Source of the DNA: a virus
Taxonomy: Duplodnaviria > Caudoviricetes
DNA: 36,934 nt
Virus record (IMG/VR): IMGVR_UViG_3300044657_000181
Span: 1-36,934 of that record
Strand: one strand, 5' to 3'
Part shown: piece by piece, positions 4,321 through 32,788 of the stretch
Position numbering within the stretch: position 1 is the first letter of the stretch
Layout: every line of letters begins with the position of its first letter
Made by a program: the position numbers and the translations under genes
Notes under the pieces: generated by a model
Database searches by the model: none
Told to the model about the DNA's origin: nothing
The model's input: the letters and a program-made list of their open reading frames with translations, nothing else

Positions 4321-6975
4321 TTAATTACTCTCGTCTATAAAGTAAGGTAAGTTGAAAGAGGCTGTACCGTATAACACCGTATTACCGTTATCGTCCGTTA
4401 TAGTGGATTGATTGTTAGTTATTTGGAATTGGTTATCGTCACCCCAGCCGTTACCGTTCCATCGTTCAAAGTACACTGTACCAGATGATTTATAGTAAAG
4501 TTTACTATCAACCTCTATTAGTTCGGCACTTGACAGGTTAAATGAGTTAGTAGTGATACACCGCCAGCCACCTTTACGTGAACCATCGGTTACATGGTAG
4601 TTTGTACCAGCCGTCCATGTTGTATTTGATTCTAATACATTTTGAAAGTCGTCTACGCTATCATTACTTACATCATAAACCATTTCTTTATAGGCATAAC
4701 AAAGCTTGGCTTGGTCATCTTCGCTTGATAGGTAATCAATGGTTTTGACTGCGAACGAGGTAGTACCTAAATAAATAGCTATATGCTCAGGAGATCCACT
4801 AGCCCAATTACCTGTATCTAATGTGTTTATATTAGATAGCCCACACTTAGTCAATGCAACTCTTGTGGTATTATAAGCTCCTGTACCATAACTCACCTCA
4901 CCAACTAAACTAGATACCAGACCAACACCATAAAGCTTGTTATGGTGATTACCAGCCCATACAGAACCTAAACTCAACACTTGCGAGTTATCGTCATCTT
5001 GTGTGAAGTGTGCCTGTGTTTCGTAGTGGTATAACGTCACCTCATTAGCCCCTGTACTTCTGTTATCAGTGGTATTGGTTGTTGCTGTAATTGCCGCAGT
5101 GCCTGCCACCCAAGTAGAACCATCATTACCTGTTACTTCTAAACTAACCGAAGAGTCCAAACTTTTTCTATTTAATGGGTAATTCTTACTAGTACCATCG
5201 GGCAATAAAGGAATCCATTGCCCCTCTACACCATCAGGAAACGTAGCCGCGATATTGGCGGGACTGCCGATAATATCCGTCCATGTTGGATTGGCTTGTT
5301 TATGGCTACCATATCTCCTAGATATTAAGTAGTAGTTGTTCCCACTAACTCTTGAATACAGTCTTTGTGTGGTTACTACTGATGCACTAACAGTTAATAC
5401 AACTTCATCTGTGAATATTATTAACCCACTGGTTTCGTCATACAAATCAACAACATCACCTACGGAAATGGAATCGGTAAAATCCCCTTGAATAGCATTA
5501 GTACTAACACTAGTGCTGGTGGCCGCCCCGTTAACCACCTTAGTAAAAGGCACTCCATCAAACCCACGAACTTCACCCGCAATCGCTTTACGTTTGTAAG
5601 TCTCGCGCAATTCATCTAATGGTAATCGTCTACTCGACATGCGTAAATCAAGAACGTCTGAGGCGTAGATTGCATCGTAGGGTTTAGCATCGGGACGACC
5701 TGAAGCACCATTAGAAATCACCCCTGTTATCATGGCTGCGCCTGTACTAGAGGTGTCCGATGCTGCATTAACCTGATTGAAACATTCTACCGTTGTTGTT
5801 GGTTTGAATGTATTGCCATTGTACCAAGTGCCGCCATTAGAGCCGTTATTTATCTGGTTGCAATTTTTACTACCACTAGGGTTATAGGCTGGGTGATAAG
5901 CCCCTTGGTTTCGTCTTTGAACCAGTGCAATAGGAACGGCAAAACATCTAGCGTCCTGAGCTATCCCGTCGTCAAAGTTAGTACCTAGATTGGAGCCAGC
6001 TATATAGTGTCCTTTGCCACCAAAGCGCCCTTGTGCCTCACTTACTTTGCCTAGTGTGCTTGTACCCCAGTATAGAGTTGTGAAGTTATTGTTATCAATT
6101 AAACCACTAGGTACTGTTTTTTTACCTTGTGGCGACAACCGTTTTTGTGTGCTCCCATAATACACATACGGTTTACGTGTGCTAGTATCGCGCCAATCAT
6201 CCCCTAAACCCTCAACCACACGCACACGATAACGAACTTGTATTAACTTGCCATCATCTGCATAAATATTATTATCAGGGTTTTGAATAAACTTGGTTTT
6301 ATTAGCGTCTGATAGCGTAGACCAAACCACACCGTAACCTTTGGTTGTTGCGTCCCATTCACCAAACGCTGAGTACCCTTGTACAACGTTACTTGTCTGT
6401 AAACTAATACCCTCATACGATGCTCCGCCGTATTGAACGTTACCCAATGGATATACAACGTCTTTATCTGTGATAGCCTCATGGAACACTTCTAAAAACA
6501 CAAAGTCTTGTCGTGATGTTATTACTTTACGTGTTGATGTTTCGGCTGCGAAAGCCGTTGCCGCGTCTGCGTAGGTTGTTACTTCGCCTGTTGATGTGTC
6601 GTATGACTTCAAACCGTTGGGGGCTGGTGGGAATAATACTACACTAGCGAGTGACGAATCAGAGTTGTTGGTATTTGATAGTACGCTTTGTACACCGTTA
6701 GTTTGTACCAATGGCATACCAGTTCTTGAACTTCCTATAGTCCCTGGCGTACGGGTATTACGACCTAGCCAGAGAGTGTTTGCCGCAGTCTCTACAGAAA
6801 ACATCCCATCACTAACTTTGTTTATTGTAGCTACCCCAGTAGTGTAGTGTTTACCCCACTCACTAAACCCACTCCCTGCGTTCTCAGCTTTACGTTGTTC
6901 AGCTAGAGCAAAGAATTCTGCCTTCGACATAGCTTGTAAGGGTGCGTCTGCACCCTTATATTGTATTTTATCCAT
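4321..6975 (-). CDS. Large virion protein, putative second receptor-binding or tail-spike protein
   Basis: 884 aa, Gly/Ser/Thr/Asn-rich and beta-rich; AGGAG RBS; directly downstream of the tail fibre; no T7 gp17-type anchor at its N-terminus. Confidence 0.6.
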   Translation of the reverse strand: MDKIQYKGADAPLQAMSKAEFFALAEQRKAENAGSGFSEWGKHYTTGVATINKVSDGMFSVETAANTLWLGRNTRTPGTIGSSRTGMPLVQTNGVQSVLSNTNNSDSSLASVVLFPPAPNGLKSYDTSTGEVTTYADAATAFAAETSTRKVITSRQDFVFLEVFHEAITDKDVVYPLGNVQYGGASYEGISLQTSNVVQGYSAFGEWDATTKGYGVVWSTLSDANKTKFIQNPDNNIYADDGKLIQVRYRVRVVEGLGDDWRDTSTRKPYVYYGSTQKRLSPQGKKTVPSGLIDNNNFTTLYWGTSTLGKVSEAQGRFGGKGHYIAGSNLGTNFDDGIAQDARCFAVPIALVQRRNQGAYHPAYNPSGSKNCNQINNGSNGGTWYNGNTFKPTTTVECFNQVNAASDTSSTGAAMITGVISNGASGRPDAKPYDAIYASDVLDLRMSSRRLPLDELRETYKRKAIAGEVRGFDGVPFTKVVNGAATSTSVSTNAIQGDFTDSISVGDVVDLYDETSGLIIFTDEVVLTVSASVVTTQRLYSRVSGNNYYLISRRYGSHKQANPTWTDIIGSPANIAATFPDGVEGQWIPLLPDGTSKNYPLNRKSLDSSVSLEVTGNDGSTWVAGTAAITATTNTTDNRSTGANEVTLYHYETQAHFTQDDDNSQVLSLGSVWAGNHHNKLYGVGLVSSLVGEVSYGTGAYNTTRVALTKCGLSNINTLDTGNWASGSPEHIAIYLGTTSFAVKTIDYLSSEDDQAKLCYAYKEMVYDVSNDSVDDFQNVLESNTTWTAGTNYHVTDGSRKGGWRCITTNSFNLSSAELIEVDSKLYYKSSGTVYFERWNGNGWGDDNQFQITNNQSTITDDNGNTVLYGTASFNLPYFIDESN

Positions 6976-9631: not shown

Positions 9632-12600
9632 CTAATTCTGTTCTACATTACGTATAACTGCATTAGCTACTTCATTTACTAATGGGAGGGTATTCAATGG
9701 TACTGCCTTCTTAATAGCTGTAGGGTCGCCATCTAACACATTATAAGCGTTATCTAGACCTGACACTATCGGTACTTCCCTAGCACCTTCCCATAAGGCT
9801 TCTAGACCATCTTTTTCTTGGGCTGTTTTAGACCAACTTTGACTTAGTGAATAAGCATCTCCCATGATACCTAAGTTACTCACATAGTTCCATGGCTTAG
9901 CTCTATCTAACGTAGGGTTCTCCCACTCTGAGTCTGATATAACTGTGTACACTCCAATACCTAATGCTACTTTAGCATATCTAGTTAGACCTGCTGTCAT
10001 AGAATTTAGTACTGTACCTAATACAGCCTCTCTATCAGCAAACTGTAAGTTACGCTGTGCACCTTTTGACATGAACGCTAGCGGTGTTCTACGAAACTGC
10101 ATTATAGCCTGCCATATAGGCTTGTTCATAAATACAGGTAACTCACCCGACATCACTCTAGGCATTAGTTGAGCCTCTTCCCTGTTCATAGCATATACGA
10201 ACTCGTCTAGTGCATCTTTATCCCACGCATCAAACTTGAAGTCTGTAGGGAATCCGTCTTCATCAAACTCAACGTGTTTACGAATAGCTTCAAATGCTTT
10301 TCCATCTTCTGTTAAACCTAAATCAGCTAGTCTTTCTGTAGTAGATGTGCCCTTGTTAAACTTCGCTGTTCTCGCTATGTCTACTGAGAACGAGGCTTGT
10401 AGGAGTCTAGATTGTGCTTTCTGTATAGCGTTAACACCAGACAATGAACCTAACATTCTACCAAACTGTGCTTTATACGCACCTAGTGTTACTTTATCTA
10501 CGGCGTCAATAGATGCTGCACGTAAATCTGATAGTTCGTCAACTTGAGCTTGGTCAATGTTGTTTACAGAGTATCTGTTTATATACTCCATATTATCATT
10601 TACTGCTGCTATAGACCTTACCTGATGTAGTACACCTTTATCGTCCATACTTTCGCCAGCCATAGCCCATATCTTCTTAGCTACTGCTGGTTGAGACATG
10701 TAGTTAACTATTAGCCTCTGAGCCATTGTTCCTGTCTCTGCTAATTGAGCTACTCCAATACCACCCATTTGTTGTACTGTCACTAAATCCATCATAGCCC
10801 GCATTTCAGGAGCCATACCTTGCCGCGTAGGGCGACCGTACAGTAAATCTCTGGCATCCTGCACCAATAATTTATCTTTTTCATCCGATGGTGTTAGGAA
10901 TTTTTCGAAATCACCCTCGGACCGTATAAGCCCATTGGTGGCCTTTGAAATACCAATATCTGCGGCTGCTCGTTGTGTATAGCTATCCATTACAGTTGGT
11001 AAGTCTGTATCTATCAAATCTAACATTGATAGTCCATTCTTCTCTACTGTAAAGTCTAGAGGTATACGTGATTTACCACGACCTGATATACCTGCACCAG
11101 TGTCAGTATGTTCCATCGAGTCACCTAAACCATTAATCCAGTTAAACTGTTTCTCGGCTAACTCACTCGTTGATTGATTGTCAGCTATCTTACCCGCTCG
11201 TTTAGCCGACTCAATAGACTCTGTTAACAAATCTATTACATGTCGCTTACCGAACTTCTTAACAATCTGCTCTACTTTCACCTTCTTCCATACATGAGGT
11301 AAGTAATGCTTTATTCTTCGTTTAGCATCAAAACCTTTTACATTAGCGTTGACTCTACCTTCAAATAATTCATCGTTATTCTTATCTATCTGTCTTAGAT
11401 AATCATCTAAATACTCGTCAGGTTCTACTTTGTAGCCCATGTTTAGTTTCTCTTGTCTAAGCATAGCAGCTCTGTGGAACGCTTGTGCATCCTGATTGAC
11501 TTTACCGCCTTCCCAAGCAGCCTTAAACCTCTTATATCTACTACCACCTTGTTGCATTACCCATCCTTTAATATTACGATGATATGCTTCATTATGGTTC
11601 CCTGTAGTCCGAGTGTATATAGAATCCTTAATGAGGGCTGCTGTAGAGTTACGTTTTACTTTACCTGATACACCTGCTCCTGATTCTAATATATTAGAAC
11701 CTATGTAAGACATTATATTATCCTTACTTAGGATTAGTTTAGATGCGAACTCTTGCATTCCTATACGATTACCTAACCAGCGATGTACTTTAGCAAATAC
11801 GTTATGTTTACTATTGATGTCTTCTATCTTAGGTCGAACTACTTCTTCCTGATACTTTAACATCTGTTCTACATTACTAGCTTGCCACTCTAATTCATCT
11901 GCCTCAATGTCTTCGGGTGTACGAGTATCTACAGCTGATGGTTCACCACCTTCACTAACATCCACCTTAGGTGCTGGTTTTACAGTAGGTTGATAATCAT
12001 CTACTTCTATATCATATAGAGGTGTATCTACTTTACCTGTAGCTAATTGTGATTTCACTTCTTCCTGCATCTCGCCTAAGCGTACTTGACTAGATTTGGT
12101 ATACTCGTTAAAAGCTTTAGCCTCTTCAAACGCTTGGTTTTCTTCTTCACGTTGTCGAAATGCCTCTTCTTCTTGTTTAGCTATATCTTCTGGAGTAGGT
12201 TCTTTTTTACCTCTCCAAGGAGTAGGTACGTAATCAATATCCTCTACACCTTCACCAAGTGATTTACGCTTGGCTCTTTTACCAAACGATCTTACAGCGG
12301 TCTCACCTATAGCAAATATAGAACCAAACGCTGCACCATAGCCTGTGTCAGTAGCCCATATATTTAGTAACTCTTCATTAGTAAAGTCCCTATAGTTGTT
12401 AGCTGTGTAAATTAAAGACTCAGTTAAACCTGTTGTACCACCTACAGCGGATGCAGTCATTGCACTCCGAACTAAGGGACTAGATACTTTAGAGAAAGCT
12501 ACACTAGCACCTTTTGCTGTTAACTGAGCTACTTTACCACCTGCAACCCAAGATGTTGGGTCTACTAGATATGGAGCTGCTTCGTTTACTAGCATAGAGG

Positions 12601-13675
12601 CTAAGTATTTTACACCTTTCTTCTTTTCTATAGCTTGAGATTGTTCATTAGTTTCTCTATTGATAAGCTCTGTACCACCTACTTCTGTAGCAGCTAGGAA
12701 CCCATCACTCTCAAACTTATCGTACATCTTCGCTGCTACATCAGGAGCTATATCATTCTCTTGTATATAAAGGTTTAAATCTTCTTCTGTAGTACCTTCT
12801 GACATATCACGCATGATGGAGCTTACATTCAGACGGTCTTTGTTGGCACTTCCAGAGAATTGCTGATTAACAGAGTTCTTTAGTATTCCCCACATAGAAG
12901 TATCTACACTAGGACTTACATCCATAGTATGTGTTCTATTCTGGCGTATTAAGTTGGCCTTTGTGTAAGGGTCACTCCAAGCTGCTAACATAGTAGCACC
13001 TATATTTGAGCCTCTTGCTACTTCGTACCAACTCCGTTTCTGAGCTGCTGATAACTTCGCGTTATCTTTGAATAACTCCTTAGCTACTGCTAAAGCTTCT
13101 TCTTTGTTTACCACACCCTCTACAGCATCCGCTATATGGGTCTTAAAAGACTTTCGTAATAACTCAATCTTAGTGTATTCTTCGTCTGAGATTATAGTAG
13201 AAGGTTCTACACCTGATTCCAGTAACTCATAGGCCTCTACATTAGTGGATTGAGTCTTACCTGCGTACCATTTATATCGTTCATCTTCTACACTACCTGC
13301 ATCGTCGAAACCATATTTTCCCCAGTTATCTGATACACCTGCTTCATACAGTACATGTCTCCAATCAACACCTTCGACTTCTAATGTACCTAATCGTCTA
13401 CGGAATACGTCTATAGTATCGGAGTTCACATTAGCAGTACCCTCACCGAAGATACCCATTAACCCATCACGAAAGTATTCTGCGTCTTTTCCTGTTCCTA
13501 TCTCCGTACCATCCACACCAGAAATACGAAGAGGGTATGTACCCCCTCCGCTTCTAATCTTCGGTGTGTCTACATCGTACGAATCAGGACTTATAGTCTC
13601 AGTTTCCTCGACCTTAATCCCAGAAGGGTCTTGGTCTAATGGAGTCTGAGCCTCTTTTCCATTCATCATAGCCAT
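9632..13675 (-). CDS. Internal virion (ejection) protein at the T7 gp16 position, with an N-terminal SNase-like domain
   Basis: 1347 aa, largest ORF, last of three genes between tail tubular B and the tail fibre; hydrophobic Gly/Ala-rich helices around aa 355-460; SNase-like motifs at aa 34-115. Confidence 0.85.
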   Translation of the reverse strand: MAMMNGKEAQTPLDQDPSGIKVEETETISPDSYDVDTPKIRSGGGTYPLRISGVDGTEIGTGKDAEYFRDGLMGIFGEGTANVNSDTIDVFRRRLGTLEVEGVDWRHVLYEAGVSDNWGKYGFDDAGSVEDERYKWYAGKTQSTNVEAYELLESGVEPSTIISDEEYTKIELLRKSFKTHIADAVEGVVNKEEALAVAKELFKDNAKLSAAQKRSWYEVARGSNIGATMLAAWSDPYTKANLIRQNRTHTMDVSPSVDTSMWGILKNSVNQQFSGSANKDRLNVSSIMRDMSEGTTEEDLNLYIQENDIAPDVAAKMYDKFESDGFLAATEVGGTELINRETNEQSQAIEKKKGVKYLASMLVNEAAPYLVDPTSWVAGGKVAQLTAKGASVAFSKVSSPLVRSAMTASAVGGTTGLTESLIYTANNYRDFTNEELLNIWATDTGYGAAFGSIFAIGETAVRSFGKRAKRKSLGEGVEDIDYVPTPWRGKKEPTPEDIAKQEEEAFRQREEENQAFEEAKAFNEYTKSSQVRLGEMQEEVKSQLATGKVDTPLYDIEVDDYQPTVKPAPKVDVSEGGEPSAVDTRTPEDIEADELEWQASNVEQMLKYQEEVVRPKIEDINSKHNVFAKVHRWLGNRIGMQEFASKLILSKDNIMSYIGSNILESGAGVSGKVKRNSTAALIKDSIYTRTTGNHNEAYHRNIKGWVMQQGGSRYKRFKAAWEGGKVNQDAQAFHRAAMLRQEKLNMGYKVEPDEYLDDYLRQIDKNNDELFEGRVNANVKGFDAKRRIKHYLPHVWKKVKVEQIVKKFGKRHVIDLLTESIESAKRAGKIADNQSTSELAEKQFNWINGLGDSMEHTDTGAGISGRGKSRIPLDFTVEKNGLSMLDLIDTDLPTVMDSYTQRAAADIGISKATNGLIRSEGDFEKFLTPSDEKDKLLVQDARDLLYGRPTRQGMAPEMRAMMDLVTVQQMGGIGVAQLAETGTMAQRLIVNYMSQPAVAKKIWAMAGESMDDKGVLHQVRSIAAVNDNMEYINRYSVNNIDQAQVDELSDLRAASIDAVDKVTLGAYKAQFGRMLGSLSGVNAIQKAQSRLLQASFSVDIARTAKFNKGTSTTERLADLGLTEDGKAFEAIRKHVEFDEDGFPTDFKFDAWDKDALDEFVYAMNREEAQLMPRVMSGELPVFMNKPIWQAIMQFRRTPLAFMSKGAQRNLQFADREAVLGTVLNSMTAGLTRYAKVALGIGVYTVISDSEWENPTLDRAKPWNYVSNLGIMGDAYSLSQSWSKTAQEKDGLEALWEGAREVPIVSGLDNAYNVLDGDPTAIKKAVPLNTLPLVNEVANAVIRNVEQN

Positions 13676-16025
13676 TTAGCTCTGCCTCTAATTCTGGACG
13701 TTGTATCATACCTACACGTCCGTTCAGTTCTATACGTATACCACCTTGAAATATAGAAAGTTGAGCGTTAGGGACTTGTTCGATACCTCTTATCTCGTTA
13801 CCAAACGCGTCTACGCTACCACCTACTATTTCTTTCAGTACCCTTTGGAACCCTGTTTTGTACATACTACCAGTTTTGTATGTCTTACCTAAAATCCGCA
13901 CTGCGTCTTCTAGATTACGACCACCCAATGACTCAAAAGAACCCCCATAGCGTATAGTACGGTTGTCTACTCTTGTGTTTATACCGTTAGCAAAAGTCTG
14001 TGCTGCTTGAAATGCTACTTTCTCACCTAATGGTAAATGTTTAACGTACTCTGTGTATACAGAGTTTTGTACATCACTTTCTGCACTCACCACCCCTAGG
14101 CTTTGTAGTAATACTTCGCTACTCTTTCGATTAGCAACCTTGACATCAGTCGCCGATACTATCTTATCTAACTGACGGACAGATTCAGCTACTCCCATTT
14201 TCATCTTAATAGCATTCTGCATGTGAGCTATTTGTACTCGCTCGTCGGCAGTAGTTGCTGCAACGAATAGTGGTGCTGCTCTATCCTTTAAAGTTTCTAA
14301 GGCTGTAGCGTTACTTACTTGCTCACTAGTGAACGTATTATCTTCTGTAAACTTGCCACGTAAATTAACAGCTAAGTTCTTCACAGCCGTCACTACCTCC
14401 TCTGATTCAGGTAAGTAGTTTATGAAACCTGCGGAACCTCTCAATACTTGGTCTACGTTTACAGGGCTACCAAATATACCTTCTAACTTATCTATAGTAG
14501 ATATGTCTTTGTCAGGGTTAATCTGGTTCACTACTGAGTCGATAGCACCTTTCAAGTGTGCTTTCTTAGCTTTAGTTTCTACCTTAGTAAACCCACCGCC
14601 TGTTATCAAGGATTGCACACCTTCCACTAAATCTTTAGCTTCTTGGTCTGCTTTCGCTTGGGCAGCGTTTTCCTTCTTTAGTCTAGCCTCTTCCTCAGAA
14701 GTCCACTTTTCTAGTTGTTTCTGATTACGCTCGAACTGGTCTATTAACTCACTTCGTACTTCATCAGGTAAGTTAGGGTCTTCTAGCTTGATGACTAAAT
14801 CATCTTGTCTATCAGTTAAAATAGTCCGCCGTTTATCAGGACTAGCTTTATACATAGTGTATACGAACTCTTTATCGTCTAACACAATGTTGGACTTCTG
14901 TTCTACTACACCTGTTCTTACAGCGTCTTGTAACTGCTTCTTGTACTGATTCACCAGTTTACCACGATATCTATCAGCACCAGCTACCGTCTTAAGATGT
15001 TTATAAGTCTTTGTATCGCGAGCTGCTACTAAAGTTCTAGCAGACGCATACTGCTGTCTCGCAGCTGCTACTACATTAGGGTCCGTAGAAGTTTCTATAG
15101 CTGCCTCGTATCTTAGTCGTTCAGCTTCTAGCATATCGAAGTTATCAGTATCTATAATACCTCTAACTGTCTCGTACTGATTTCTCTCTTTTGCATCAAA
15201 TGAAGATACTAAACCTGACTCATTTAATAGTTTAAATGCTGAGTAGTCGTGCGCTCTTATAGCTGTAAACGCTTCATTTACTATTGTCTGTCTAGCAGCA
15301 AAGGTACTCATGCCTTTAGGTATATACTCACCTGCAAATAACTTAGAACCTATCTCAGCTGCTTTGTCTGGATTAGTGTTCATCATTTGCTTGTATTTAC
15401 TAAGGGTTGTTTGAAAACCCTCTGCTACTGTTCGTCTCGCTTTCTCTAACTCTCTCACTTTGTATAGTTTAAGATGGTCTTTAGTTAGTTCATTGGAGTT
15501 ATCTTTCCAATTCTCCATGAAAGCGAAAGCAGCGTCAGGAGCTTCTTTGAAGTTCTCAAGATTATAGTTAGTTATCTTATCCGACATATACTTCTGATAC
15601 TGTTCAGGAGGCATATCTGCGCCTTCACCTTCTATGAATGCGGCTTCTTCTACATACATAGAATCCGCTGCGTTCTTAGCAGATGCGTGGAGTGAACCTA
15701 GATACTCTGGAGTTTGACCACCATAGATTATCTCAGTAAATCCTGTGTTCTTACTATCTTTTTGGAACTCTGTCTGACCTTGTTTAAAACCTTGTTCATG
15801 GTAAGCTTTCTGATAACGCTGCTGCATCTCAGTATCGCGTTTTTCACCCATGAATGAACTTAACGCGTTTCCTAGTGTGCTACTAGCTTGATTAATATTC
15901 TGAGCTGTTATAGCAGCATTGTTGTTATTATGCTGTGCTATAGTTGCTGTACGTACAGCGTGTTTCTTTGTGGGAGCAACATCCATAGCTGCTCCCGCGT
16001 TTGCATCCGCAATTGGACTACGCAT
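13614..16025 (-). CDS. Internal virion (ejection) protein at the T7 gp15 position
   Basis: 803 aa, predominantly helical; synteny; AAGGA RBS. Confidence 0.75.
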   Translation of the reverse strand: MRSPIADANAGAAMDVAPTKKHAVRTATIAQHNNNNAAITAQNINQASSTLGNALSSFMGEKRDTEMQQRYQKAYHEQGFKQGQTEFQKDSKNTGFTEIIYGGQTPEYLGSLHASAKNAADSMYVEEAAFIEGEGADMPPEQYQKYMSDKITNYNLENFKEAPDAAFAFMENWKDNSNELTKDHLKLYKVRELEKARRTVAEGFQTTLSKYKQMMNTNPDKAAEIGSKLFAGEYIPKGMSTFAARQTIVNEAFTAIRAHDYSAFKLLNESGLVSSFDAKERNQYETVRGIIDTDNFDMLEAERLRYEAAIETSTDPNVVAAARQQYASARTLVAARDTKTYKHLKTVAGADRYRGKLVNQYKKQLQDAVRTGVVEQKSNIVLDDKEFVYTMYKASPDKRRTILTDRQDDLVIKLEDPNLPDEVRSELIDQFERNQKQLEKWTSEEEARLKKENAAQAKADQEAKDLVEGVQSLITGGGFTKVETKAKKAHLKGAIDSVVNQINPDKDISTIDKLEGIFGSPVNVDQVLRGSAGFINYLPESEEVVTAVKNLAVNLRGKFTEDNTFTSEQVSNATALETLKDRAAPLFVAATTADERVQIAHMQNAIKMKMGVAESVRQLDKIVSATDVKVANRKSSEVLLQSLGVVSAESDVQNSVYTEYVKHLPLGEKVAFQAAQTFANGINTRVDNRTIRYGGSFESLGGRNLEDAVRILGKTYKTGSMYKTGFQRVLKEIVGGSVDAFGNEIRGIEQVPNAQLSIFQGGIRIELNGRVGMIQRPELEAELNGYDEWKRGSDSIRPRPFWD

Positions 16026-16037
16026 GTTGCTTCCTTA

Positions 16038-16598
16038 TTACTCTGGTAAAAGTATGTCACCTGATGACTCTGACCCGAACAGATTGTCAAACCCTTCTAC
16101 AAACTCATCACCTTGTGTTGCTATCATAGGTGCTAAGTTATTCACTATACTAGACGCAATACTACCACCTTGAACAGATACATTATCCATAGCCAACATA
16201 GTTGACTGTGATTGGTATATGCTTGATAGTTGTTGCTCTATCTGCTGTTTAGCTGATTGTCTATTGTTCTGTTTAGCTAATGAAGAGTTAAGCTCTGTCT
16301 GATAAATTGAATTATCCAACGACTGGCCTTCTGTACCTGTTACGGCTGCGGCCACTTTAGCTTGCGCTTCTGCTCTATCTTGTTGCATAGCTATAACTCT
16401 ATCCGTATTAATACGATCTTGTGTTACAGCTGCTATATTAGCCTCTGCTGCTACCTTCTGGTTAGCTGCATTGTGCATACCTTGATAACTAGCATAGAAC
16501 TTACCATATGCTGCTTCATACGCAGCTTTAGCACTAGCACCAGTCATCATATCTGCTGCCCCTATTAAGGCTTGTGCATATCCTGCTGAACTTGCCAT
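16038..16598 (-). CDS. Internal virion (ejection) protein at the T7 gp14 position
   Basis: 186 aa, Ala/Gln-rich, with the AQAKVAAAVTGTEGQSLD motif typical of gp14-like proteins; follows tail tubular B. Confidence 0.8.
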   Translation of the reverse strand: MASSAGYAQALIGAADMMTGASAKAAYEAAYGKFYASYQGMHNAANQKVAAEANIAAVTQDRINTDRVIAMQQDRAEAQAKVAAAVTGTEGQSLDNSIYQTELNSSLAKQNNRQSAKQQIEQQLSSIYQSQSTMLAMDNVSVQGGSIASSIVNNLAPMIATQGDEFVEGFDNLFGSESSGDILLPE

Positions 16599-32401: not shown

Positions 32402-32788
32402 CTACCAACGAGCTGCATACCCTCGGGTATCTACATGCACAAACCCATCTTTAGGATAGTAACCTATACCTAGTAGATTTGCATATGGCAGGCTTTTAAC
32501 TAATAGATGTAACTCTTTAGTTGTCATACCTTCCACTCGTATATCAGCTGCGTCTGATAGTGGGTCTTCTACAGTAGAACGATGTTCACTGTTCTTCGAC
32601 CCACCTACTTTCGCGTTGTACGCTGTGCACCGTGATGCTGAACTTATAATTACAGCAGCACCTTTAGCTTTCTCTTTAATATGTTCTAGAACGATAATTA
32701 AAGGAAGAGATAACCCACCCACTCCACAGCATGAGCATACGGACTTAGGGTCGCCAGACTCAGTAAAGTTAGCTGTTTCATACTTCAT
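32402..32788 (-). CDS. Peptidase M15 family endolysin (Zn peptidase)
   Basis: CSCCG, ISSASRCTAYNAKVGG..NSEH, DAADI and GFVHVDTRG motifs. Confidence 0.9.
   Translation of the reverse strand: MKYETANFTESGDPKSVCSCCGVGGLSLPLIIVLEHIKEKAKGAAVIISSASRCTAYNAKVGGSKNSEHRSTVEDPLSDAADIRVEGMTTKELHLLVKSLPYANLLGIGYYPKDGFVHVDTRGYAARW

Follow-up and report, generated by a model that had tools for sequence, protein, structure and literature searches.

A gp16-type phage ejection protein with a predicted staphylococcal-nuclease domain in the transglycosylase slot

In the literature consulted, the enzyme domains described on phage ejection proteins are cell-wall hydrolases and RNA polymerases. Of 205 Autographivirales genomes surveyed, 127 encode an identifiable ejectosome lysozyme and 86 have an N-terminal lytic transglycosylase; in the available part of that survey, lysozyme and transglycosylase are the only ejectosome domains reported, nucleases go unmentioned, and domain shuffling on ejection proteins is already known for muralytic enzymes (10.64898/2026.05.18.726046). 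In the T7 model given in the accessible part of a review, residues 243-410 of the ejection protein gp16 constitute transmembrane helix (TMH) I, gp16-N lies on the periplasmic side and gp16-C on the cytoplasmic side, and only gp16-N has been resolved (PMC8954989). Here we describe a gp16-type protein with a different N-terminal enzyme. It is encoded in a 36,934-nucleotide stretch of a Caudoviricetes virus (IMG/VR record IMGVR_UViG_3300044657_000181, positions 1 to 36,934; hereafter the window), for which a previous reading of the letters alone (the sequence-only reading) had proposed a staphylococcal-nuclease (SNase) domain at the front of a gp16 homologue.

The window protein resembles T7 gp16 and its PHROG 342 relatives in phages Cd1 and phiKT in gene order, size, a homologous first hydrophobic region and core, and presence of an N-terminal enzyme; it differs from them in that this enzyme is an SNase and not an SLT transglycosylase. 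T7 gp16 itself scores E 0 in PHROG 342, and the window protein's match to the same family (Table 1) upholds its earlier identification as a gp16. Core homology is strong to Cd1 (hhalign probability 99%), with a weak direct match to T7 gp16 (hhalign probability 30%) and local profiles that match T7 gp16 at E 5e-5 and 5e-9. The gene is the third and largest of a gp14-gp15-gp16 block upstream of the tail fibre, and the three products contain no cysteine in 2336 amino acids (aa), against 12-13 cysteines in the polymerases. Given gp16 homology, gene order and the absent cysteines, it is very highly probable that the SNase-bearing gp16 is packaged and ejected. Neither Pfam nor PHROGs gave an SLT or lysozyme match in the window gp16, which therefore lacks the N-terminal transglycosylase typical of the family, and the same databases showed no muralytic domain in the gp15-position protein or the other window virion genes.

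The motif noticed by the sequence-only reading is present, as described, in the minus-strand open reading frame: D34, D36, R50, D55, E58, D89 and R93, spaced by +2, +14, +5, +3, 31 and +4, correspond to SNase D19, D21, R35, D40, E43, D83 and R87. This seven-residue pattern, with the long gap free to vary from 25 to 45, arose in 4 of 20,000 shuffles of the protein, a frequency for a pattern picked post hoc. Direct searches were silent. Pfam and PHROGs did not detect the domain in the window gp16 (Pfam 0/16 for the window protein and 15 close relatives), the window domain as a single query found no tblastn match among cultured phages and none in a viral-contig scan, phmmer against the PDB returned one unrelated match (E 0.35), and metagenome and genome scans showed no relatives and no prophage copy. 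An alignment of 16 sequences had a thermonuclease as its top PDB match, at an insignificant E of 0.41.

Predicted structure and a wider profile carry the assignment. An AlphaFold model built from the 16-sequence alignment (mean predicted local distance difference test score, pLDDT, of 71) gave staphylococcal nuclease in all 50 of the Foldseek PDB matches listed (best E 2.9e-5, probability 1.00, TM score 0.60-0.65), and VIA-align returned Z 11.5 for Tudor-SN and 10.6 for SNase 1sta (root-mean-square deviation 3.4, 112 residues), the best other fold reaching Z 4.6. In a second model of aa 21-350 from 44 sequences, the domain has pLDDT 75-96 and superposes on Tudor-SN at 1.9 Å over 99 residues; SNase is again the top match, its Z of 7.8 being diluted by the length of the query. 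A profile of 24 relatives matches PDB SNase (E 1.4e-11), and the catalytic columns of the two line up. Of the checks that the sequence-only reading had proposed, the structure search and the clade profile both return SNase, although Pfam misses the window protein; from predicted structure plus profile, the SNase fold of the N-terminal domain is virtually beyond doubt.

Some relatives cross the Pfam SNase cut-off by themselves, namely gp44 of Alteromonas phage R8W (22.8 bits against 21) and 5/28 and 5/25 further relatives. When the best 7995 candidates from the protein database were scored with the 24-sequence profile, it recovered at least 98 proteins, comprising 51 of gp16 type and 47 shorter proteins, of which 46 carry the PF00565 label. 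The ESM Atlas offered two unnamed viral clusters and a PF00565 cluster at 0.89, taken as a lead only. In addition, the BFVD matches A7KUR9, A0A6J5NQ80 and A0A8S5RKI5 are large viral proteins (965-1342 aa) with SNase-like folds, possibly independent virion-protein fusions.

Conservation of the active site was assessed in an alignment of 65 gp16-type SNase domains (32 clusters at 70%, median identity 41%), which leaves out two duplicates, three gene calls with starts internal to the domain, the window's truncated call and two repeat proteins (P0008, P0011). The sequence-only reading had staked its claim on conservation among homologues, and D34, D36, R50, E58 and R93 are kept in 65/65, with one additional residue ahead of the last arginine in two near-identical proteins (P0045, P0057). 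These five make up five of the eight invariant columns in a 24-sequence alignment spanning 19-69% identity; the best of the other D/E/R/K positions of the window domain reaches 0.83 and most lie below 0.35. The position of SNase Y85 holds F, Y or H in every relative and that of Y115 is aromatic in 64/65, and the phosphate-binding positions D83 and K84 vary. A search through the C-terminal core only recovered 12 loci, after two further weak matches (L018, L019) had been dropped; the motif is present in each of the 10 whose N-terminus is intact (one being Alteromonas phage H4/4). SNase is crippled by loss of D21, R35, E43 or R87 and is more tolerant at D40, and the conservation pattern, looser at D40, matches this tolerance. 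Retention of the key residues throughout points to selection for catalysis, and by residue conservation the domain is, with high probability, catalytically competent.

The window's own subclade departs from the others around the active site. G20 is replaced by V, A, S, T or F, T41 by G, the T41-P42 pair and the loop after E43 are lost, and the E43-D83 gap is 31 versus 38-40 in the rest; given the G20 and loop losses, the enzyme of this subclade may be attenuated or slower. The +14 spacing also varies among relatives (+10 in R8W), so that its exact fit in the window is partly luck. A purely structural role, as a cap without catalysis, is very improbable: these losses, and the existence of non-catalytic SNase folds (extended Tudor domains are among the fold matches), would allow it, but among sequences of about 20% identity no other charged position is as well conserved as the five active-site residues, and the ratio of non-synonymous to synonymous substitution (dN/dS) is ~0.2 for the domain against relative L004, with dS near saturation. 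Two length variants stand out: an insertion of 21-28 aa, after the E43 equivalent in L005 gp16 and also in P0009, at the site of the loop that the other members of the subclade have lost, and an insert of ~97 aa directly behind the SNase core of P0023 (aa ~118-214), which the close relatives P0019 and P0021 lack and which has no Pfam or Atlas match.

Translation most likely starts at M1, which has a GAGG upstream and a position shared by the relatives. A start at V54, as in the database gene call P0012, would remove D34, D36 and R50; it was rejected, as V54 has no Shine-Dalgarno-like site and the relatives begin at the M1 position, and the downstream start that the sequence-only reading had named as a threat to its claim is thus disfavoured. 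The gp15 and gp16 genes overlap in the +1 frame in the window (13614-13675, 62 nt), in L004 (9932-9996, 65 nt) and in L005 (6690-6739, 50 nt), a conserved feature of the window's subclade. This overlap is the likely reason why gene callers place the gp16 start within the SNase domain (P0012, P0022, P0024), and such internal starts (four cases) explain in part why the domain has stayed unannotated. A gp15-gp16 frameshift fusion of the kind annotated in H4/4 was considered and is not supported, given the +1 overlap and gp16's own ATG and Shine-Dalgarno-like site; the overlap was not searched for slippery sites.

A quick tree of the core (60 rows, with 16 near-duplicates or fragments left out) recovered a clade of 55 rows at a Shimodaira-Hasegawa approximate likelihood-ratio (SH-aLRT) support of 100, with four subclades in unresolved order, three with SNase and the Vibrio group without it. 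The domain is missing from Vibrio phages phiV141, K437b and JSF7 and from five more distant gp16s; the SNase-less Vibrio phages have only ~130-155 aa ahead of the membrane segment. Among cultured phages (32 records, several unannotated), the domain lies inside a large virion protein only in R8W and H4/4, and the other annotated matches are labelled nuclease genes or hypothetical. SNase is a stable feature of a broad, mostly uncultured marine clade, yet likely an accessory one on which ejection does not depend, because phiV141, K437b and JSF7 belong to the same clade and lack it.

The same three phages bear on whether the target at entry is the DNA of the phage itself, with the domain nicking or trimming the leading end or binding and ratcheting the genome, a role that we consider improbable. 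Entry evidently needs no such domain in these phages, mere binding would not require all catalytic residues, and the 3'-phosphate ends left by SNase are not directly ligatable. The domain does sit at the mouth of the DNA tunnel, and the 217-bp terminal repeats of H4/4 could tolerate end loss (PMC5658483), but T7 DNA binding maps to gp16-C in the accessible part of the T7 review (PMC8954989).

The layout of the protein suggests where the domain would act. Between SNase and the hydrophobic region lies a spacer of 184-202 aa in 57/58 proteins, and the stretch behind the hydrophobic region ranges from 76 to 1140 aa. A hydrophobic-region profile from 21 relatives matches T7 gp16 311-373 (E 5e-5, in a single-sequence search), Cd1 320-448 and phiKT 320-442; Cd1 and phiKT have SLT at aa 15-118 and the hydrophobic region from aa 320, the same layout as with SNase here. 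By position, then, the domain does stand in place of a transglycosylase, as first proposed, but some relatives hold SNase and lysozyme on one chain. The survey of N-terminal exchanges that the sequence-only reading had suggested thus yielded SNase versus SLT, lysozyme additions and the SNase-less Vibrio phages.

Lysozyme occurs in frame ahead of SNase (P0030/L008), at the far C-terminus (L013, L015, P0048, P0054, P0055) or as a separate downstream gene (L007, L010). ART-PolyVal-like domains (28.5-28.9 bits; cut-off 31.2) lie in the variable region of K437b (L003, aa 429-614) and JSF7 (L021, near aa 817-853), two Vibrio phages whose gp16 lacks SNase; ART-like cargo was seen nowhere but in the stretch that follows the hydrophobic region. 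A chain that bears wall-cutting enzymes at its two ends and a protein-modifying enzyme between them fits an out-in-out topology, which would leave SNase outside the cytoplasm, and by analogy with the T7 topology and from the lysozyme fusions we consider a periplasmic location after ejection likely. The variable region of P0015 has an extra globular-looking segment (aa ~640-760) without a Pfam match, possibly a further cargo domain.

An active nuclease might instead reach the cytoplasm, through a hairpin, full translocation or proteolytic release, and there degrade host DNA or RNA or defence nucleic acids and feed RNR and ThyX; this is unlikely. Nucleic acid is abundant in the cytoplasm and the genome holds RNR, ThyX and MazG, but free Ca2+ is low there, and a non-specific nuclease would first meet its own entering genome. 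The domain occupies the periplasmic transglycosylase slot at a fixed spacing and can sit behind a lysozyme that must reach peptidoglycan, whereas ART-like cargo uses the other slot, behind the membrane segment. In favour of the cytoplasm, the hydrophobic region is multi-segment, and enzymes injected along with phage DNA are known (PMC5512222, available part). The earlier suggestions of an attack on the host chromosome, of RNR/ThyX feeding and of a cytoplasmic grip on the genome are accordingly disfavoured, since the domain is N-terminal to the membrane segment, on the side modelled as periplasmic in T7, and three Vibrio phages do without it.

The slot itself would also suit a phosphodiesterase that acts on an envelope substrate (phosphodiester-linked glycans, lipid carriers or periplasmic nucleotide signals) to ease the tunnel, as a muramidase stand-in. 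The window virion genes without a muralytic domain and the variable D83/K84 positions are compatible with such a role, but the aromatic residues that stack on bases are conserved, some relatives have a true lysozyme in addition to the domain, and 78/205 Autographivirales genomes have no identifiable ejectosome lysozyme in the part of the survey available, so that no stand-in is required (10.64898/2026.05.18.726046). We rate it as improbable.

The lysozyme genes of H4/4 and R8W raise a further alternative. In H4/4 (L020:3782-3797) the lysozyme gene ends in A-AAA-AAG-TAG, and the SNase-gp16 frame, without an ATG before the domain, needs an annotated -1 frameshift; in R8W (L001:5695-5725) the adjoining lysozyme gene has the same heptamer, but there is an ATG with GGAG upstream too. 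In both phages, then, the gp16 gene follows a lysozyme gene annotated as an endolysin and shares the A-AAA-AAG slippery site, as might be expected if unpackaged gp16, silent in the low-Ca2+ cytoplasm, were activated by seawater at lysis and cleared host and biofilm DNA for progeny dispersal. Such a role has a low probability: it would not require the nuclease to be part of an ejected protein, let alone at a constant spacing from the membrane segment, and the window and most relatives are without such lysozyme coupling.

Periplasmic destruction of foreign DNA is favoured over the cytoplasmic, lysis, own-genome, envelope and silent-cap alternatives, although as a complete chain we put it forward tentatively. 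In this proposal, gp16 with its SNase domain, likely an active Ca2+-dependent nuclease, would be packaged in the head and ejected at entry. SNase would then stay at the inner membrane of the host, facing the periplasm, and would cut foreign DNA, such as the genomes of rival or superinfecting phages, as this DNA crosses the periplasm. Because cytoplasmic Ca2+ is low, the domain would stay silent during assembly; in the virion, which seawater Ca2+ can enter, the simplest guess is that the site is masked inside the gp15/gp16 stack. The narrower claim that an active nuclease is delivered to the periplasm is somewhat on the probable side. Given the other steps, rival DNA as the target is an evenly balanced proposition, reached by elimination and by analogy with the superinfection breakdown of T4. 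It is possible, though doubtful, that the clade as a whole packs a live nuclease and places it in the periplasm at entry, as an expression-independent weapon against rival phage DNA switched by the difference in Ca2+ between cytoplasm and periplasm, on a gp16 with two addresses: cargo at the front or the C-terminus (SNase, lysozyme) would act in the periplasm, and cargo behind the membrane segment (ART) in the cytoplasm.

Several points weigh against this proposal. At the active site, the equivalent of the Ca2+ ligand D40 (D55 in the window protein) varies among the 65 relatives, 35 having N, 26 D, 3 G and 1 Q, and D89 (D83) is G in 23/65. The hydrophobic region of the window protein is multi-segment and weak (Kyte-Doolittle peak 0.89), and a hairpin would place both flanks on the same side. 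The dose would be no more than 4-6 copies, the DNA of most phages passes through a protective channel and marine co-infection may be rare, which makes the benefit uncertain, and the packaged DNA would have to be spared by the nuclease. The full post-ejection topology of T7, on which the periplasmic placement leans, is a composite model in the accessible part of the review (PMC8954989).

Table 1. Positions of the ejection-protein genes and gp16 features in the window
Feature	Position	Strand	Basis or remark
gp16-type internal virion (ejection) protein, 1347 aa, 0 Cys	9632..13675	-	PHROG 342, E 4e-67 over aa 344-1343
gp15-position internal virion protein, 803 aa, 0 Cys	13614..16025	-	Position only; overlaps gp16 by 62 nt
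gp14-like internal virion protein, 186 aa, 0 Cys	16038..16598	-	Pfam T7_gp14, E 1e-3 (below cut-off); PHROG 805
GAGG Shine-Dalgarno-like site	13685..13688	-	9 nt upstream of M1, within gp15 coding region
SNase (thermonuclease) domain, aa ~21-138	13259..13615	-	Predicted fold and profile
Active-site codon D34	13576-13574	-	
Active-site codon D36	13570-13568	-	
Active-site codon R50	13528-13526	-	
Active-site codon D55	13513-13511	-	
Active-site codon E58	13504-13502	-	
Active-site codon D89	13411-13409	-	
Active-site codon R93	13399-13397	-	
Predicted helical bundle, aa ~146-245	12941..13240	-	pLDDT mostly 86-98; part of SNase-to-membrane spacer, putatively periplasmic
First Gly/Ala-rich hydrophobic region, aa 335-469	12269..12673	-	Homologous to part of T7 gp16 TMH I
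Variable charged region, aa 470-640	11756..12268	-	Length varies in relatives; putative cytoplasmic cargo slot
Conserved gp16 core, aa 641-1312	9740..11755	-	Includes C-terminal hydrophobic segment near aa 1222-1246

The helical bundle of the spacer showed no clear fold match within the longer aa 21-350 model, in which it was folded together with the domain and not alone. All recognised genes of the window, a linear virus record ~77% complete, are on the minus strand. They include ThyX, RNR, MazG, an M15 peptidase, DNA polymerase A, a ligase, a T7-type RNA polymerase and the terminase; the virion genes among them encode portal, capsid, tail tube and nozzle, the three internal virion proteins and a tail fibre. 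The terminase shares 79% identity with its counterparts in Alteromonas phages R8W and H4/4 (genus Foturvirus), followed by Vibrio phages at 54-57%, yet the window gp16 falls in a separate subclade. From these phage relatives we infer a marine gammaproteobacterial host; a sequencing-run search matched one DNA run, an estuary metagenome, and listed no RNA run. Behind the collagen-like tail fibre, an 884-aa protein (4321-6975) matches PHROG 14489 (function unknown, E 1e-168) and has no Pfam match. The M15 peptidase (endolysin PHROG 894, 32402-32788) is the only cell-wall hydrolase seen, and lies among nucleotide-metabolism genes, far from the lysis/terminase region.

A conserved nuclease differs from the cell-wall hydrolases and RNA polymerases on described ejection proteins, and no description of SNase in an ejection protein or gp16 was found in the open-access literature searched (bioRxiv supplements lay outside the search). 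Automatic annotation would already label some relatives PF00565, whereas the records of R8W gp44 and H4/4 gp40 read merely 'putative internal virion protein'. The H4/4 announcement annotates the -1 frameshift and is silent on an SNase domain (PMC5658483), the accessible text of the R8W paper mentions neither a nuclease nor an internal virion protein, and the available parts of PMC8228385 and PMC11784390 do not mention the domain. Two questions follow, namely by what means a non-specific nuclease can be kept next to ~48 kb of packaged DNA and which periplasmic nucleic acid needs cutting, and the two cultured Alteromonas phages that carry the domain make both experimentally accessible now. If rival DNA is the target, superinfection exclusion would be delivered by the particle itself. 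The gp16 layout also suggests that the site of action of ejectosome cargo could be predicted from its position in the chain.

The closest cultured counterparts are gp44 of vB_AmeP_R8W and gp40 of vB_AspP-H4/4, which have the same SNase-spacer-membrane-core layout as the window protein at 33% identity in the core and 23% in SNase; unlike it, they retain both DGDT and the loop, carry N at the D40 position and follow an upstream lysozyme gene with the slippery site. Compared with staphylococcal nuclease (PF00565; PDB 1kab, 1sta), the window domain shares the predicted five-stranded OB-fold plus helices and matches D19, D21, T22, R35, D40, E43, D83 and R87; it differs in ~20% identity, in G20 replaced by V, in an E43-D83 gap of 31 versus 40, and in forming the tip of a 1347-aa virion protein where the other is a free secreted enzyme. 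Polyvalent and other injected proteins (T4 Alt, N4 vRNAP, MuF fusions) are likewise virion carriers of exchangeable conflict enzymes, and the main text of their account, as far as available, mentions no SNase, gp16, internal virion protein or periplasm (PMC5512222). In contrast to those proteins, the nuclease cargo of the window's clade is fixed across most of the clade and likely acts outside the cytoplasm.

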